Below are positions 32,300 through 37,993 of a stretch of 64,000 bases of DNA, in pieces (the first letter of the stretch is position 1; each line of letters starts with the position of its first letter). The notes under the pieces were generated by a model. The model had not been told where the DNA came from. It did no database searches and worked only from the letters and a program-made list of their open reading frames with translations. Origin of the DNA: an uncultured Caulobacterales bacterium (GTDB taxonomy: Bacteria; Pseudomonadota; Alphaproteobacteria; Caulobacterales; Maricaulaceae); contig CAZGLY010000009.1 in the NCBI GenBank assembly GCA_964526675.1, positions 5,004 through 69,003 on the forward strand, given 5' to 3'. The position numbers were made by a program, and so were the translations under genes.

Positions 32300-32552
32300 G
32301 AAAGCGTCTCTCGCGACGGCGCAAGCTCGTAAAGTGTCGTCGTGACCCCGGTTTGACAAGGCGCGCAGCCGAACGCGTCGCGGCGACCGCGGTATGGGAC
32401 GCCGCGGTGAGGACTCGCCACCCGTGACGTCGCCCCGTATAAACGCCAACGCGGGTGTTCGGGGGCCTAACGCCGGCAATCCAGGGGTTCACAGCGCCGC
32501 GAAGGCGAAGGTTTGGCCGGCCGGCGGCCTCATCCAACCATGGGGCGTGCGT

Positions 32553-33512
32553 ATGACATCGGCGAACGGTCTCATCCAGCGGGCGCGCCGTCGTGCGGGC
32601 CGCCCGACGCCGACGAGCGTCGGCGTGCGGACGGCTCTCGCGGCGGCCGCGGCGGCGCTCCTGTGCGCCTGCAGCCTCGGGCCCGCCACCGAGCGGGCCG
32701 GAGGGACGCCGTTTGCGATCGGGCCGCTGACGCCGCCGCCGAGCTCCTTGCCGCCGGCGGAGAGCGCGGGCGCGGACGCGTTGTTGGGCGCGGCGAGCTA
32801 CTCCATCCAAGATCCCTACGCTGATTGGGGCGTGGGCTATCTGGCGCCGATCAACGGCCGGGTGGCGAGCGCGGCGATCCCGCTCTTTCTCGATCCCGGC
32901 CGCGACCATTGGGGGTGGCTGGTGCGCGGGCGGGCGTATCTGCTCGCGAACCGGACCGCCGCGCCGCCGCGGTCGGACGCCTGGCTGCGGCTGGTGGACG
33001 GCGACGAAGCGCTCGTCGTGCTGCAGCAAGGCCCCCGCGGTTGGCTGTTGGTGCGTTGGGGCGAGCCCGATGATTTTTCCGGCGGCGTCGCGTGGACCCG
33101 CCGCGGCCTCGAGCGCGGCGAGCGTCTCGACTACGTGCCCTGGGCGACCGCGATCGAGCGCGAAGGCGGCCTCGTCTTCCGGGACCGGGAGGTCGCGTAC
33201 CGCTTGCGGGCCTCACCAAGCGAAAGCGCGCCGGTGCTCGGTTCCGTCGTCGGCGGCGACTATGATTTGGAAGTCATGAAGCGGGCTGGGGATTGGGCGC
33301 AAGTGCGGGTGTTTGAGCCGCCGAAATGCGCGCCGCCCGCCGACGGCTCCCTTGGTGGTGAAGTGCTGCTGGGCGGGCCGTCCGACGGCGGGGCGGCGCC
33401 GACGCGCCGCTACCGCACGCGCGTGGGGTGGGTGAAATGGCGCGACCCCGGCAAAGGCCCTTGGCTCACCCGCGCGTGGCCGTGTTTGCGGGGATCGCTG
33501 ACGGTTGGCTAG
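32553..33512 (+). CDS. probable lipoprotein with SH3-like C-terminal segment (hypothetical)
   Basis: ATG 32553 in ORF 32394..33512. It has a basic N-terminus, then a hydrophobic stretch ending in a lipobox-like ALLCACS. The later segment DLEVMKRAGDWAQVRV resembles bacterial SH3. Confidence 0.45.
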   Translation: MTSANGLIQRARRRAGRPTPTSVGVRTALAAAAAALLCACSLGPATERAGGTPFAIGPLTPPPSSLPPAESAGADALLGAASYSIQDPYADWGVGYLAPINGRVASAAIPLFLDPGRDHWGWLVRGRAYLLANRTAAPPRSDAWLRLVDGDEALVVLQQGPRGWLLVRWGEPDDFSGGVAWTRRGLERGERLDYVPWATAIEREGGLVFRDREVAYRLRASPSESAPVLGSVVGGDYDLEVMKRAGDWAQVRVFEPPKCAPPADGSLGGEVLLGGPSDGGAAPTRRYRTRVGWVKWRDPGKGPWLTRAWPCLRGSLTVG

Positions 33513-33518
33513 CGCGCG

Positions 33519-34421
33519 CTAGCCCGCCAGCGGCGACGGTTCGCGCGGCGACGCGCCCAAGCGGCTGTCGATGTAAGCCTCCAACGAGCCCGCCAGCTTG
33601 CGCACATCTTGCGCGAGATCGGCGTACTTGCCGCGGAGCGTGCGGGGGCGCCCGGCCTCCTCGACCTGGCTGGCGCGCATCATCGCCACCGATTGTTTGA
33701 TGGCCGGATTGAGCACCGGATAGAGTTCCCGCAGCAAATCGGCGTAGCGCATCGACACGTGATTGACCGCATACTTCGTGATGACCACCAGGCGCGGCAC
33801 CGTCTCCTCCAACGCCAAATGCTCATCAAGACCGCGCACGTCGAACGCCCGAAGGCCGTAGACCGCGACCGGATCAGCGATCGTCGGCATCACAATCGCT
33901 TCGCTGGCCAAAATGGCGCCCTGGGCGAGCGAGGCGAAGTTGGGCGCGCAATCAAACAGGAAGTAGTCATATTCCGCGCGGATCGGGTCTGTGCAGTCCC
34001 GCAGCCGCATCGCAATGTCCTCACCGGCGCGTGCGGGATCCTTGCTGATGGCCTGGGCGGCCGCCTCAAACCGCAGCTCGTCGAAGCGCATGCGCGGCGA
34101 CGCGGGGATCAGGTCCACGCGCCCGCCATAGTCGTCGATTTCGGTGACGCGCGACGCGTTCTCGACAATGGCCGCGTTGAACGATCCTTCGCGATGGTGG
34201 CTTTCGGGAAACAGCACGTCGCCCAGATTCCGGACAGCCCCGCGCTCGATCTCCTCCATCTCGTCGCTGCCGCGCAGCATGAATGAGAGGCTGCCTTGGG
34301 GATCGAGGTCGAGCACCAACACCTTGCGCCCGAGCGAAGCCAGGCCGTCGGCCAACATCATACTCGTGGTGGACTTGCCCACCCCGCCCTTCAGGTTCGC
34401 CACGCTGACCGCGACCGCCAT
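33519..34421 (-). CDS. orphan ParA/MinD-type P-loop ATPase
   Basis: 300-aa ORF. It has the deviant Walker A with signature lysine VANLKGGVGKSTT, Walker A' VLVLDLDPQGS and Walker B YDYFLFDCAPN. There is no N-terminal HTH. No parB or parS was recognised nearby. Confidence 0.85.
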   Translation of the reverse strand: MAVAVSVANLKGGVGKSTTSMMLADGLASLGRKVLVLDLDPQGSLSFMLRGSDEMEEIERGAVRNLGDVLFPESHHREGSFNAAIVENASRVTEIDDYGGRVDLIPASPRMRFDELRFEAAAQAISKDPARAGEDIAMRLRDCTDPIRAEYDYFLFDCAPNFASLAQGAILASEAIVMPTIADPVAVYGLRAFDVRGLDEHLALEETVPRLVVITKYAVNHVSMRYADLLRELYPVLNPAIKQSVAMMRASQVEEAGRPRTLRGKYADLAQDVRKLAGSLEAYIDSRLGASPREPSPLAG

Positions 34422-34644
34422 GCTTCTTCCTCATCCCATTTGCGTGCGCGCGCCGCACGGCCCAGACACGGACCCGAGCGCAAAGACGCGCCGCCGCGCG
34501 CCGGAAGCGCCCACGACCGGCGCGCGGAGAACGTTACCCCGGCGCCGCCCCGCGAGGTAGCCCCCTCCCCACACCGGATCCAGGGCCAGGATCGGCGACA
34601 GCGCACACGCCCCGGCGCCACACGCGTCCTTGGGTTGCCGTCAT

Positions 34645-34656
34645 CGAGAATTCTCG
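34645..34656. repeat. perfect 12-bp palindrome CGAGAATTCTCG flanked by direct repeats GCCGTCAT (34637..34644 and 34668..34675)
   Basis: Read directly in the divergent ParA / TIR-ParA intergenic region. It has an AT-rich centre in a GC-rich spacer. Whether it is an operator is unproven. Confidence 0.5.
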
Positions 34657-34827
34657 CGAAACGACGCGCCGTCATGCGGCACAGGCGCACGACCCTGCAC
34701 GCGCACATTGTGTCGCGCCGCCTGGTCGGTAATCCTTGTTAACTAAGGTGCGCGGCGCTCGAGCGTTGATCGCGTGCGCGCCAGGGGCGAGACCTTCAGC
34801 AGCTCTGGGCGGGCGGGGACATCAACG

Positions 34828-36216
34828 ATGCCGAGAACAGTTTTCATTTCCTACGCGCATGAAGACGACGCGCACGCTCGGGCGATCGCCCATAAGCTTG
34901 ACCAGCTCGGCATCGACTATTGGCTCGATAACGAGCAATTGCACGCGGGGGCCCACTTACTCGACAGCATTCAAGATGGCATCGCGGAGAGCTTTTGCTT
35001 CGTCGTGCTTCATTCTGAGCACTCGTATAGGAGTTCCTATGTCCGGAACGAGCTGCAGTTTGCGCTCGATCACCAGATCCCGATCATCCCAATCCATCTG
35101 GACGATCAAGAGTACACACAATGGTGGGGCCACCGTATCGGACGCCTGACATACGCGTACCGTCCGAACGAGGTTGACGATCAGATGGAGCTCTTGGTCA
35201 CTGGGATTCAAGCGCACTATCGACGCACCGCGCCGGTCATAGCGTTCACCAACTTCAAAGGTGGTGTTGGCAAAACCACGTTAGCCGCTCATCTCAGCGG
35301 CATCTTTGCGTCTGAATTTAATAAACGCGTGCTGTTGATCGATTTGGATCCGCAACACAATCTCTCTCAGTTCTTCTATGGATCGGACATGCTTGATGCG
35401 TTCGCGCGCTTGCGACGCTCATCCATGTGTCTGTTTGAACCGGGGCTCCACGAGGTCGGAGGGGCCTCAGAGGTGTCGTGGAGCACCTTTGACTACAGCC
35501 GCACAACACCTGTCTCCCGCTCCGAGATCCGCCAACAGCTGGTGACGGGCGCCGATGGGCAAGGGTCGCTGGATATCATTCCCGGGCAATTTGACCTTGC
35601 CAAGTATTGCCTCATGACGAGGGATGGCGCACGGACCGCCGCCAGCCGCAACTTCTTCACAAGCTTACAGAGCTTCCGATCCTACTACGACTACATCGTG
35701 ATGGACACGAACCCAAGTGTCTCCTTGATTTCGGAACTGGCGCTCGATCATTCGGATATGTTGGTGTCGCCGCTTCATCCTGACCGCTACGGGCTTCGCG
35801 GCGTGCGCCTTTTGCGGCGGGTGTTGCACGAACGGCAACGCAACCGGCCTGCGCCCCTCAAACGCGCGACGGTGGTCAATCGCGTCGACAATCACAATCC
35901 GCAGATGCAGCGGTTTTTCCAAAGCTTGATCAGCGGCGATTTCGATCAAGCGATTGAGGCGTTGCCCGCGGGCGTCGCCCCTCGGGATCCCGAGTCCCAC
36001 TATGTGGCGCCGACCTACGTCCAAGAGAGCAATTTTATGTTGGTGCCCGTCCTGGGCGACTCTGAGACGGGCGTTGATCGGCTGATCTCATTCAACAACA
36101 ATCAAGTGGCGAACCCGATCCGAGAATCGCTGTTTCTTGTGGCTGACGATATTAAGCGGCGATTGGAACAAGATCATGAAACCAACAACTGGCCGCATCT
36201 TGGCGACGCTGCGTAA
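34828..36216 (+). CDS. TIR domain - ParA-type ATPase fusion protein
   Basis: ATG 34828 in ORF 34774..36216 (462 aa). Residues 1 to about 130 are TIR-like: VFISYAHEDDAHARAIAHKL...GIDYWLD...SIQDGIAESFCFVVLHSEHSYRSSYVRNELQFAL. The conserved Glu is E75, codon 35050..35052. From about residue 135 it is ParA-like, with Walker A FTNFKGGVGKTTL (35257..35277), A' VLLIDLDPQHN and Walker B YDYIVMDTNPS. Confidence 0.8.
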   Translation: MPRTVFISYAHEDDAHARAIAHKLDQLGIDYWLDNEQLHAGAHLLDSIQDGIAESFCFVVLHSEHSYRSSYVRNELQFALDHQIPIIPIHLDDQEYTQWWGHRIGRLTYAYRPNEVDDQMELLVTGIQAHYRRTAPVIAFTNFKGGVGKTTLAAHLSGIFASEFNKRVLLIDLDPQHNLSQFFYGSDMLDAFARLRRSSMCLFEPGLHEVGGASEVSWSTFDYSRTTPVSRSEIRQQLVTGADGQGSLDIIPGQFDLAKYCLMTRDGARTAASRNFFTSLQSFRSYYDYIVMDTNPSVSLISELALDHSDMLVSPLHPDRYGLRGVRLLRRVLHERQRNRPAPLKRATVVNRVDNHNPQMQRFFQSLISGDFDQAIEALPAGVAPRDPESHYVAPTYVQESNFMLVPVLGDSETGVDRLISFNNNQVANPIRESLFLVADDIKRRLEQDHETNNWPHLGDAA

Positions 36217-36592
36217 GAGCAAAACGCGATACACGCCGGAGGAGCTCACGGCGTTTTTCACCGACGTGCGCGCGCTGCCGGACGCGGCGCTCATCGCCGC
36301 CTACAATGGCCCCGCAACGACGCGCACGCCCGCGACGCCCCTCCCGGCGTGGCACGCGTCCGTCGCCGAGGCCCGTCACCTCTTGGGCGCGCGCCAAAGC
36401 CGCTTTGTTGAACTGATGATGGAGCAGCTCGCGGGCGATCCGCGTCTGGCCGGCTATGCGCCCGCGGCCTCGCACCGATCCAGCCTGCCCGCCTTTCTCA
36501 ACGCGCTCGCGAAGCGTCTGCCGCAGGACGACATCGTCGCCGCGGCAAGGTCAGTCGCCCGCGCAAAAGCGCTGATCTACCAAGCCGCCTAG
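36176..36592 (+). CDS. hypothetical small protein with basic N-terminus
   Basis: ATG 36176 (or TTG 36137) overlaps the 3' end of the fusion gene by 41 nt. The 138-aa product starts MKPTTGRILATLRKSKTRYTPEE. GC is high after the overlap. No recognised family. Confidence 0.4.
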   Translation: MKPTTGRILATLRKSKTRYTPEELTAFFTDVRALPDAALIAAYNGPATTRTPATPLPAWHASVAEARHLLGARQSRFVELMMEQLAGDPRLAGYAPAASHRSSLPAFLNALAKRLPQDDIVAAARSVARAKALIYQAA

Positions 36593-36595
36593 AGG

Positions 36596-37993
36596 CTATT
36601 CCGCGGCTTTCAGCTCCGGCGGGACGTAGGGCTCGCGCATCAGCACAAGCTCTTCAGCGATGGTGGGGTGCACGGCGCAGGTCTCGTCCCATTGGGTCTT
36701 CGTGACGCCCGCCTTCACCGCGATGCCGATGGCTTGGATCAGCTCGCCCGCGTCAAGGCCGACCATGTGGCAGCCGATCACGACATCATCGGCTTTGCGC
36801 ACGACGAGCTTCATCATCACCCGCTCCTCGTCGCCGGTGAGCATGTGTTTCATCGGTCGAAAATTGGTTTTGTAGACGTCCACGCCATGGGCGCCGTATT
36901 TGCGCCGCGCCTCGCCTTCGGTGTCGCCGACAACCCCGGCTGGCGGTTGGGTGAAGACCGCGCTGGCGACGACCTCATGATCAAACGCCGTGGGTTTGCC
37001 GCCAAACACGGTGTGGGCGAAGGCTTGACCCTCGCGGATGGCCACCGGCGTGAGGTTCAACCGGTCCGTGACGTCGCCGACCGCGTAGATGCTGTCGACA
37101 CTTGTCTTGGAATACGCGTCGACGGAGACGGCGCCCTTCTTATTGACGGCGACGCCAGCCGCCTCCAAGCCAAGGCCTTCAACCTTGGGCGTCCGACCGA
37201 TGGCGAACATAATGCAATCGGCTTCGATCTTGGATCCGTCGGTGATGTGCGCGAGATAACGCCCCTCGCCCAGCTTCTCGATTTTCTCAAAGACCGCGTG
37301 GGTGATCACGCGCACGCCCTGGCGTTTCATCTCCGAATGAACCGCCATGCGCACGTCCATGTCGAAGCCGCGCAGCACCGTGTCGCCGCGGTAGAGCAAA
37401 CACGTCTCCGCCCCGACGCCGTTGAAGATGCCGGCGAACTCGCACGCGATGTAGCCGCCGCCCGCGACGATCACATGCTCGGGGCGTTTTGGCAGGTGAA
37501 ACACGTCATCGGACGTGATGCCATACTCCTGACCGTCCAGCTCGAGCGGCCGGTAGGGCGTCGCGCCGACCGCGATCAGAATGGTCCTGGCGGTGACGGT
37601 GCGGTCCTCGCGCACGAGCCGAACGGTGTGAGGGCCCTCCAGAACGGCGCGGTCTTCGATGATCTCAACGCCGGCGTTCTCCAGATTGCGCCACGAAAAC
37701 CCCGCGATGCGGTCGATCTCCGCGCTTTTGCGATCGATCAGCTTGGTCCAATCCAGCTGCACATTCTCCGCGCTCCAGCCATAGCCCTCCGCGTGGTGGA
37801 AGGCGTGCCCGTACTCGCTGGCGTAGACGAGGAACTTCTTGGGGATGCACCCGCGGATCTGGCATGTCCCGCCGACGCGATACTCCTCCGCGATCGCGAC
37901 CTTCGCGCCATAGACGGAGGAGCTGACGCGGGCCGCGCGGATGCCGCCGGAGCCCGCGCCGATGACGAACAGATCATAATCGTACTCGGCCAT
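36596..37993 (-). CDS. gor: glutathione-disulfide reductase
   Basis: Internal ATG 37993..37991 gives MAEYDYDLFVIGAGSGGIRAAR. It has the redox-active disulfide GGTCQIRGCIPKK and the C-terminal HPTIAEE. Confidence 0.9.
   Translation of the reverse strand: MAEYDYDLFVIGAGSGGIRAARVSSSVYGAKVAIAEEYRVGGTCQIRGCIPKKFLVYASEYGHAFHHAEGYGWSAENVQLDWTKLIDRKSAEIDRIAGFSWRNLENAGVEIIEDRAVLEGPHTVRLVREDRTVTARTILIAVGATPYRPLELDGQEYGITSDDVFHLPKRPEHVIVAGGGYIACEFAGIFNGVGAETCLLYRGDTVLRGFDMDVRMAVHSEMKRQGVRVITHAVFEKIEKLGEGRYLAHITDGSKIEADCIMFAIGRTPKVEGLGLEAAGVAVNKKGAVSVDAYSKTSVDSIYAVGDVTDRLNLTPVAIREGQAFAHTVFGGKPTAFDHEVVASAVFTQPPAGVVGDTEGEARRKYGAHGVDVYKTNFRPMKHMLTGDEERVMMKLVVRKADDVVIGCHMVGLDAGELIQAIGIAVKAGVTKTQWDETCAVHPTIAEELVLMREPYVPPELKAAE

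Follow-up and report, generated by a model that had tools for sequence, protein, structure and literature searches.

A TIR–ParA fusion gene and its small overlapping partner as a candidate two-gene conflict module in an uncultured Caulobacterales bacterium

The window analysed here is a stretch of 64,000 nt from contig CAZGLY010000009.1 of an uncultured Caulobacterales bacterium, and its subject is a gene on the plus strand (34828..36216) that encodes a TIR–ParA fusion protein of 462 amino acids. Homologous loci that were fetched for comparison carry labels such as L001 and L008. The ATG at 34828 was accepted as the start codon of the fusion because it agreed with the N-termini of 33 homologues. 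Downstream on the same strand lies an open reading frame (ORF) of 138 amino acids, counted from its ATG (36176..36592), and the two genes overlap by 41 nt, which suggests that their translation is coupled. Upstream lies a gene for a stand-alone ParA of 300 amino acids, here called ParA2, on the minus strand (33519..34421). It is transcribed divergently from the fusion gene, with a spacer of 406 bp between them (34422..34827). The wider surroundings consist of housekeeping genes, with DegT, GFO, HU, DAHP synthase and an SH3-like lipoprotein on one side and gor and mfd on the other. This arrangement, including the overlap, the divergent spacer and the housekeeping flanks, had been described in an original prediction made from the DNA letters alone, and the present analysis confirmed it.

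The N-terminal part of the fusion protein (amino acids 5–97, encoded by 34840..35118 on the plus strand) is a TIR domain by its matches to the Pfam families TIR_2, ThsB_TIR and TIR, by alignment with PdTIR and AbTIR, and by a structural model. The match to TIR_2 (E=1e-21, 78.1 bits with a cut-off of 28) places it in the TIR superfamily (clan STIR), and ThsB_TIR was matched with 31 bits (cut-off 21.2). This half of the protein aligned with PdTIR (3h16, 4e-7) and with the NADase AbTIR (7uwg/8g83). In the alignment, the residues Y71-V-R-N-E75 of the fusion fell on W-T-N-Y-E of AbTIR, which we take to be the WxxxE motif with the catalytic Glu of TIR NADases, and E75 also fell on the Glu in the K-E-L of PdTIR. 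The codon for E75 is found at 35050..35052 (plus strand), and the motif around this catalytic-Glu position reads YxxxE instead of the WxxxE of AbTIR. Judged from E75, the TIR domain is apparently catalytically competent.

The remainder of the protein (amino acids ~135–452, 35230..36183, plus strand) is an ATPase domain of the ParA/Soj type, as indicated by its motifs, by Foldseek and by a match of the fusion to the ParA-like phrog_164 in PHROGs (3e-36). In Pfam, amino acids 137–367 matched AAA_31 (5e-28) and CbiA (5e-17). The domain contains the deviant Walker A motif NFKGGVGKT (35251..35277, plus strand), the A' motif IDLDPQ and the Walker B motif DTNPS with D293. N142, K144, G145–G148, K149, T150, D172, D174-P-Q and D293 were invariant in 34 family members, whereas the TIR domain was only loosely conserved among the same members. 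An AlphaFold2 model of the fusion (pLDDT, the predicted local distance difference test, 84; pTM, the predicted template modelling score, 0.77) showed alternating strands and helices in the TIR half, as in flavodoxin-like folds. When the ATPase half of the model was searched with Foldseek, the best matches were Soj (1wcv), ParA (8ray) and the pNOB8 ParA, with a TM-score on the target of ~0.80. The matches to 1wcv, 8ray and 2bek had E-values of about 1e-12, which assigns the domain to the Soj/ParA fold, and 3fkq, a receiver plus MinD-like protein, was also among the fold matches of the fusion. The sequence-based prediction of a TIR domain joined to an ATPase with a complete motif set, and with E75 at the catalytic position, was thus upheld in every part.

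The product of the overlapping ORF, referred to below as the partner, was predicted to be all-helical (AlphaFold2 pLDDT 84), and its first 25 residues carry a net charge of +4. Searches of Pfam, PADLOC, NCBIfam and PHROGs gave no match, nor was there any parB-like match, and fold searches found nothing in the PDB (best E 1.3) or among the viral proteins in BFVD (best E 0.75). No ParB, ribbon–helix–helix (RHH) or helix–turn–helix (HTH) signal was seen in the partner, either by sequence or by fold. A word-based search retrieved the partner alone, and an exhaustive phmmer search of 1.84 billion representatives returned only five relatives of 131–141 amino acids. One of these, in L090, lies between an AAA_31 gene and gor. 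The ORF directly 3' of the fusions in this family was nearly always ~131–154 amino acids long, with an overlap of 4–101 nt or a gap of a few nt, and the N-terminal 25 residues of all partners had a net charge of +1 to +7. Close to residues 14–17 the partner has a conserved [KR]-[SA]-[KR] motif. An iterated hidden Markov model (HMM) of the partner detected the downstream ORF in L001, L005, L008, L094, L108, L109, L123, L146, L149 and others; in a background of 6733 ORFs it gave no false positive. The partners of the subclade L088/L093 had only their N-terminal ~45 residues in common with the others, and the similarity was weak (hhalign P=0.008 versus 0.32 for an unrelated control). The pair of fusion and partner recurred in all those subclades of this small, mostly alphaproteobacterial family that have retained the catalytic Glu. 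The true conserved companion of the fusion is the 138-aa ORF, and the functional unit is that pair.

A comparison with the sister genome L215 showed where the pair begins and ends. By blastn, L215 2173–9802 corresponded to window 44166–36600 and L215 9839–13451 to window 34583–30927, both at ~80–82% identity. The gene order in L215 is mfd–gor–ParA2–lipoprotein–DAHP synthase–HU–GFO–DegT, and just 36 bp separates gor from the upstream region of ParA2 at the place of window 34584..36599. This accessory indel (plus strand) holds both genes together with 244 bp of their own upstream DNA. The non-coding region, 34584..34827 (plus strand), is absent from L215 and presumably contains the promoter and 5' untranslated region of the fusion. 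The 406-bp divergent spacer is therefore composed of 162 bp that belong to the conserved upstream region of ParA2 and 244 bp that came with the module. In a second relative, L092, the module is replaced at this position by another ParA2-type gene. With L215 empty and L092 carrying a different ParA cassette, the gor–ParA2 slot is polymorphic among relatives.

The indel borders showed no direct (att-like) or terminal inverted repeats, no tRNA was found near the module, and no recombinase or island surrounds the window copy, in which the indel consists of the two genes only. Neither tandem, iteron nor centromere-like repeats were found at the locus and, together with the lack of a parB-like match for the partner, this agreed with the earlier claim that parB and centromere repeats are missing from the vicinity. 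A sigma-70-like consensus site was not found in 34584..34827, and promoter and terminator scans stayed at chance level, so that the consensus scan was uninformative. The fusion gene had a GC content of 0.563 and a GC content at third codon positions (GC3) of 0.687, compared to ~0.68 and 0.84–0.87 for the host genes (ParA2, gor, mfd and DAHP synthase). The fusion gene is compositionally foreign in the window.

ParA2 proved to be a bona fide ParA-type ATPase, as had been predicted (Pfam AAA_31, 5e-27). It is only 28% identical to the ATPase of the fusion and has few close relatives (98%, 81%, 80% and 50% identity). The gene was kept in L215 (98% amino acid identity) and L092 (81%), both of which lack the fusion, and a second ParA was absent from nearly all other fusion loci. 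In L001, a stand-alone ParA was located within 1.4 kb of the fusion, but on the opposite side of the module and with 32% identity to ParA2. Since ParA2 is retained without the module in relatives and is missing from other module loci, it is not a component of the module. On these comparisons it is an unrelated resident gene, and the suggestion that it serves as a regulator or decoy of the fusion was not supported.

Some further features of this side of the locus were recorded. L092 contains two tandem ParA2-type genes (L092:5336-8042; 48% mutual identity), each with an overlapping ORF of ~118 amino acids (37% mutual identity), and these cassettes have gor on one side and, on the other, convergent bcsC and bcsA-B-like genes for cellulose synthase. 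The ~118-aa ORF belongs to another family than the partner of the fusion, and a search for a remnant of it in the window found none. The ParA2-proximal part of the spacer contains a perfect 11-nt inverted repeat at window 34494-34527 (CCGCGCGCCGG, 12 nt, CCGGCGCGCGG), which may have arisen by chance in DNA of 68% GC or may be an operator of ParA2. Between DAHP synthase and ParA2 lies an ORF of 372 amino acids (window 32394-33512) with a weak match to SH3_3. It is present in L215 and has a counterpart with 41% identity in L001. The starts of this ORF and of DAHP synthase are probably further downstream, because the longest ORF overlaps the extended upstream frame of DAHP synthase.

The fusion family comprises ~60 clusters at 90% identity, and the nearest homologue of the window fusion is 37% identical. 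A degenerate DNA pattern, designed by hand on the family-specific Walker B region (D-x-[IV]-x-x-D-x-N-P, 18 codons, P-x3-[DE]-x-[YF]-x3-G), recovered about 33 further fusions from metagenome contigs; it had one match in the window and none in shuffles. A scan of genome contigs with the fusion alignment caught generic ParA motifs, and among the matches listed only L007 and L008 were useful. No full-length fusion was present on 72,556 plasmids or 50,697 phages. The nearest homologue (L005:1-4212) is from a TARA marine contig with 46% GC and lies away from the DAHP synthase site; it has a gene for a PilZ–DUF1631 protein upstream of the fusion and one for a Pretoxin-HINT protein, of the polymorphic-toxin type, downstream of the partner. 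L007 (CAMEDD010000006.1) is titled Candidatus Sulfopaludibacter (Acidobacteriota), but its DAHP synthase, HU, GFO, gor and rpiA are 74–87% identical to and fully syntenic with those of Hyphomonas pacifica, and the contig is probably mis-binned.

Four unrelated islands that bear an integrase or recombinase carry the pair beside known defence genes. The island of L088 contains an integrase, HTH_17, DUF736, HEPN and a full-length Thoeris pair (ThsA 2e-119, ThsB 2e-73). That of L093/L121 contains PDC-S41 (1e-291), a UvrD/GajB-like helicase, SNase and a ParB_N-methylase. L094 has an integrase immediately 3' of the partner, in the company of AbiTii (9e-34), a TIR-Toprim protein and SIR2_2, and L108 has a large serine recombinase in the corresponding place together with an HNH endonuclease, the reverse transcriptase DRT RT_UG13a (6e-197) and a C5-methylase. 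In L216 and L109, which are of the Rhodomicrobium type, the pair comes after a RelB/ParE toxin–antitoxin module.

Among 42 loci, the catalytic position was occupied by Glu in 18 and by Asp or Gln in 24. The partner was present in 17 of the 18 Glu loci and in only one of the 24 Asp/Gln loci (L123), which is the single partner-bearing locus without the Glu. The direction of this correlation would fit a role of the partner that is tied to an active TIR. A Hyphomonas-like clade (L003:8001-9299, L087:8001-9308, L007:9866-11149 and 20 metagenome loci within L100-L212) has Asp or Gln in place of the Glu and no partner.

We propose that the two genes in 34584..36599 form a conflict module that is complete in itself and can be exchanged horizontally, most likely with an abortive-infection or anti-phage function, and we would give this reading a probability of roughly 0.45. 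A defence-like role is plausible because homologous modules reside in four independent islands beside defence genes and because the pair is an accessory indel in the window. The original prediction had also seen a candidate defence-like module here. The recombinase-bearing islands and the 2-kb indel speak for that view, with the correction that the unit is a pair of genes rather than three.

Several observations weigh against this proposal. The named family members come from Hyphomonas, Hyphomonadaceae and Rhodomicrobium, a narrow range of mainly Hyphomonadaceae-like Alphaproteobacteria. As many as 32 of the 42 loci occupy one conserved chromosomal site that adjoins DAHP synthase amid housekeeping genes, and such a fixed housekeeping site is unusual for defence genes. 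In this partial sample of loci, not weighted for phylogeny, the association with defence amounts to four island contexts and one context next to a toxin–antitoxin module, set against these 32 of 42. The original prediction had asked whether homologues sit in variable islands or in partition loci; they were never found in parB/parS or replication loci, but about three quarters are at the one fixed housekeeping site and not in variable islands. No system model in PADLOC v2 fitted the module. The matches of the fusion were at the domain level, to Aga_TIR, SAVED_TIR, PDC-S66 and ThsB, in addition to a ~40-residue P-loop match to PDC-M28B, in line with the earlier statement that the combination was not recognised as a named defence system. 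The family was also searched for another effector in place of the N-terminal TIR, and none was found; the long relatives had weak or degenerate TIRs or C-terminal extensions. The partner has a GC3 of 0.81 compared to 0.69 for the fusion, although both lie within one 2-kb indel. The Asp/Gln set is essentially one clade, so the correlation between Glu and partner reflects few independent events. Finally, the fusions of the Hyphomonas-like clade were under strong purifying selection, with a median ratio of nonsynonymous to synonymous substitution rates (dN/dS) of ~0.14 for the TIR and 0.085 for the ATPase. Because this clade lacks both the Glu and the partner, the fusion can serve a function without TIR catalysis or the partner, and in these bacteria it looks like a non-canonical TIR–ParA gene that has been domesticated into the core genome.

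The two domains suggest how a conflict module of this kind could work. It is established that TIR NADases become active when their self-association is induced. In ParA/Soj ATPases, ATP drives the formation of sandwich dimers on DNA, which fall back to monomers once hydrolysis is stimulated by the basic N-terminal peptide of a partner. In the most parsimonious model, the ParA half of the fusion would act as a nucleotide switch, in which ATP binding makes use of the signature lysine K144 to form a sandwich dimer, probably on DNA as for Soj/ParA. Dimerisation would bring the TIR domains together and create composite NADase active sites around E75. The output would be NAD+ depletion, since the module comes without a gene for a receptor or effector; production of a signal nucleotide is less likely. 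The partner would be a regulator of the ParB/MinE/ParG/PomX class: by stimulating ATP hydrolysis, its basic N-terminal peptide would hold the fusion in a monomeric state and switched off. Infection would then remove or overwhelm this brake, or the variable C-terminal domain of the partner would sense a phage component. In the complete scheme, a ParA-class ATPase, from a family otherwise known for the positioning of DNA and protein cargo, would have been recruited as an ATP/DNA-dependent assembly switch for a TIR NADase with a dedicated ParB/MinE-like brake. It would represent a new class of bacterial immune sensor that responds to foreign DNA or to nucleoid state, and it would have been domesticated in Hyphomonas-like bacteria as a core gene without TIR catalysis or partner. 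We put forward this combination of claims tentatively and regard it as doubtful in its entirety.

The concentration of the family at the DAHP synthase site could instead mean that the fusion is a cellular, non-immune ATPase of Hyphomonadaceae-like bacteria, of the ParA type and with a positioning or regulatory role. The TIR would then be an interaction or regulatory module comparable with the receiver-like N-domain of TadZ/CpaE, the partner a cargo adaptor, and the window copy one allele. The 32 loci at that site consist of 23 of the Asp/Gln type, seven of the Glu type (L008-like), L001 and the window, and all 23 Asp/Gln-type loci lie between DAHP synthase and either gor or a BCCT transporter. 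In the Hyphomonas-like clade the fusion follows its flanks (DAHP synthase 79–88% identical, fusion 59–69%), but across clades the two are discordant, the DAHP synthase of L008 being 73–75% identical to that of the Hyphomonas-like trio and the fusion only ~30%. The purifying selection on both halves in spite of the loss of Glu and partner, the invariant ATPase motifs next to a loosely conserved TIR and the fold match to 3fkq are also consistent with a cellular role. However, the module is dispensable in the window's own genus, where it is absent from L215 and replaced in L092, and it is compositionally foreign. It is not linked to any candidate cargo gene, the island copies lie among defence genes, and the Glu was kept in every partner-bearing lineage but L123. 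We consider this explanation rather unlikely, though realistic in view of how strongly the chromosomal context dominates.

The same pair of genes could be a maintenance or addiction module of integrative elements, either as a partition-like ParA with a small adaptor in the gene order of type Ib par or as a toxin–antitoxin-like system in which the TIR–ParA is the toxin and the partner the antidote and which would stabilise its host island, with the window copy as a stranded remnant. The order of an ATPase gene and then an overlapping gene for a small, basic product is that of type Ib parAB, and in L094, L108 and L088 the pair directly adjoins an integrase or serine recombinase at the island edge. 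The position beside RelB/ParE in L216 and the loss of the partner along with the catalytic Glu, as expected of a pure antidote, point in the same direction. However, the plasmid and phage collections contained no full-length fusion; centromere-like repeats were lacking, the partner had no ParB, RHH or HTH signal, and the fusion scored 81 bits with a partition model whose cut-off is 180. The window indel, with its two genes and without a recombinase or island, also speaks against it, and altogether a maintenance function seems quite improbable. An action of the toxin–antitoxin kind does not exclude a defence role. A three-component system with ParA2 as regulator or decoy of the TIR–ParA is hardly tenable, as the adjacency of the two genes across their common spacer and the nearby ParA in L001 are outweighed by the ParA2 genes kept at 98% and 81% amino acid identity in genomes without the fusion, by module loci without a second ParA, by the module-borne origin of 244 of the 406 bp and by the low identity and opposite location of the L001 ParA.

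The ATPase also has relatives without a TIR, and these share the DxNPS form of Walker B. They were found in conserved three-gene operons with a DxNPS ParA of ~290 amino acids, an ORF of ~160 amino acids and an ORF of ~232 amino acids (L105:1428-3492, L160:437-2515, L126:4375-6421, L174:8233-10276, L166:6066-8151 and L125:7203-9474). The operons adjoin PDC-S06 (2e-290), a type III restriction–modification system or a mad3-like gene. Two of the ~160-aa ORFs scored on the partner HMM, with 1.7e-8 and 3.6e-5 in a database of 13 ORFs. These leads suggest a larger family of ParA plus small partner, tied to defence islands, to which the TIR fusion belongs, and the TIR-less three-gene cassettes may themselves represent a further defence-island system that has yet to be characterised. 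Invariant WIYFKDH and Rx4H-like motifs mark the ~232-aa protein, for which Pfam, PADLOC and NCBIfam as well as a PDB profile search gave no match. It had been considered as a HEPN RNase from its Rx4H motif, and these same searches did not support this. At L198:1148-4095 (minus strand), a separate TIR of 254 amino acids with the catalytic Glu, an ORF of 122 amino acids, a TIR-less ParA of the same subfamily and an ORF of 162 amino acids are encoded in that order on one strand.

The known triggers of TIR effectors are cyclic-nucleotide sensors, Argonautes and STAND NTPases, and a ParA/MinD-type dimeriser with a small regulator would add a mechanistically different one. Mutants in Walker A and in hydrolysis, assays of DNA binding and stimulatory peptides are already at hand for the study of a trigger of the ParA type. 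The family further offers a natural contrast between an accessory island form, with both the Glu and the partner, and a fixed and selected form without either. This makes it tractable for studying the co-option of an immune enzyme to a cellular role, or the reverse. The TIR-less cassettes in defence islands suggest that ParA plus small-partner systems are a wider group that has not been recognised.

No TIR–ParA system was described in the literature that was searched, and a comparison with known systems showed both likenesses and differences. The assembly-activated TIR effectors (TIR-STING, TIR-SAVED, SPARTA TIR-APAZ/short pAgo, Cat1 and AbTir-type NADases) have a TIR_2-type domain with a WxxxE-like Glu, as the fusion does, and in both cases the TIR is joined to a module that is expected to control the oligomeric state. 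In contrast to these effectors, the control module of the fusion is a dimerising ATPase of the ParA/Soj class (SIMIBI) and not a cyclic-nucleotide sensor or an Argonaute partner. The TIR of the fusion is probably the effector itself, since the module has no separate downstream effector gene. SIR2–HerA and the STAND NTPases TIR-NLR/Avs resemble it in coupling a nucleotide-hydrolysing sensor or switch to an NAD-consuming effector, which for the module is the predicted output. HerA is an FtsK/RecA-like hexamer and the NLR/Avs proteins are STAND oligomerisers, whereas the fusion has a deviant-Walker-A dimeriser and a small partner of the stimulatory type. No STAND module (NACHT/NB-ARC) was detected in the fusion, whose NTPase is ParA/CbiA/AAA_31 by HMM and by fold, and the TIR-NLR model matched its TIR only (E=0.004).

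Type Ib ParA–ParB/ParG, McdAB, PomXYZ and MinDE share with the module the signature-lysine deviant Walker A, the Soj-like fold and an overlapping downstream gene for a small protein with a basic N-terminus. The module differs from them in the N-terminal TIR and in lacking centromere repeats, a ParB_N/RHH partner and copies on plasmids or phages. The usual Walker B of ParA proteins is DxPPS, compared to DxNPS in the fusion. The model on which the fusion fell short of the cut-off is the partition equivalog NF041546, and the scores with the RepA, SopA and PrgP models were far below their cut-offs. The module thus has none of the marks of a ParABS system, namely an equivalog ParA, a cognate ParB, centromere repeats and residence on plasmids or phages or at an origin. 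With Thoeris the link is the match of the fusion TIR to ThsB_TIR, and the L088 module lies beside a complete Thoeris system, but here the TIR is joined to an ATPase and neither the module nor the window holds a ThsA-type effector (SIR2/SLOG or Macro). TadZ/CpaE also has a flavodoxin-like (receiver-like) N-domain followed by a ParA/MinD ATPase, and 3fkq was among the fold matches, but the N-domain of the fusion is a bona fide TIR by HMM. The fusion scored 18 bits with CpaE_hom (cut-off 154), and no tad/cpa pilus genes were present in the flanks. By analogy, TadZ/CpaE is a possible counterpart for the Glu-less chromosomal clade. The module belongs to none of these groups, neither the assembly-activated TIR systems, SIR2–HerA and TIR-NLR/Avs nor ParABS, Thoeris and TadZ/CpaE. 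As proposed here, the pair would be a conflict module with a TIR effector in which both the class of the controlling NTPase and the family of the partner are new.

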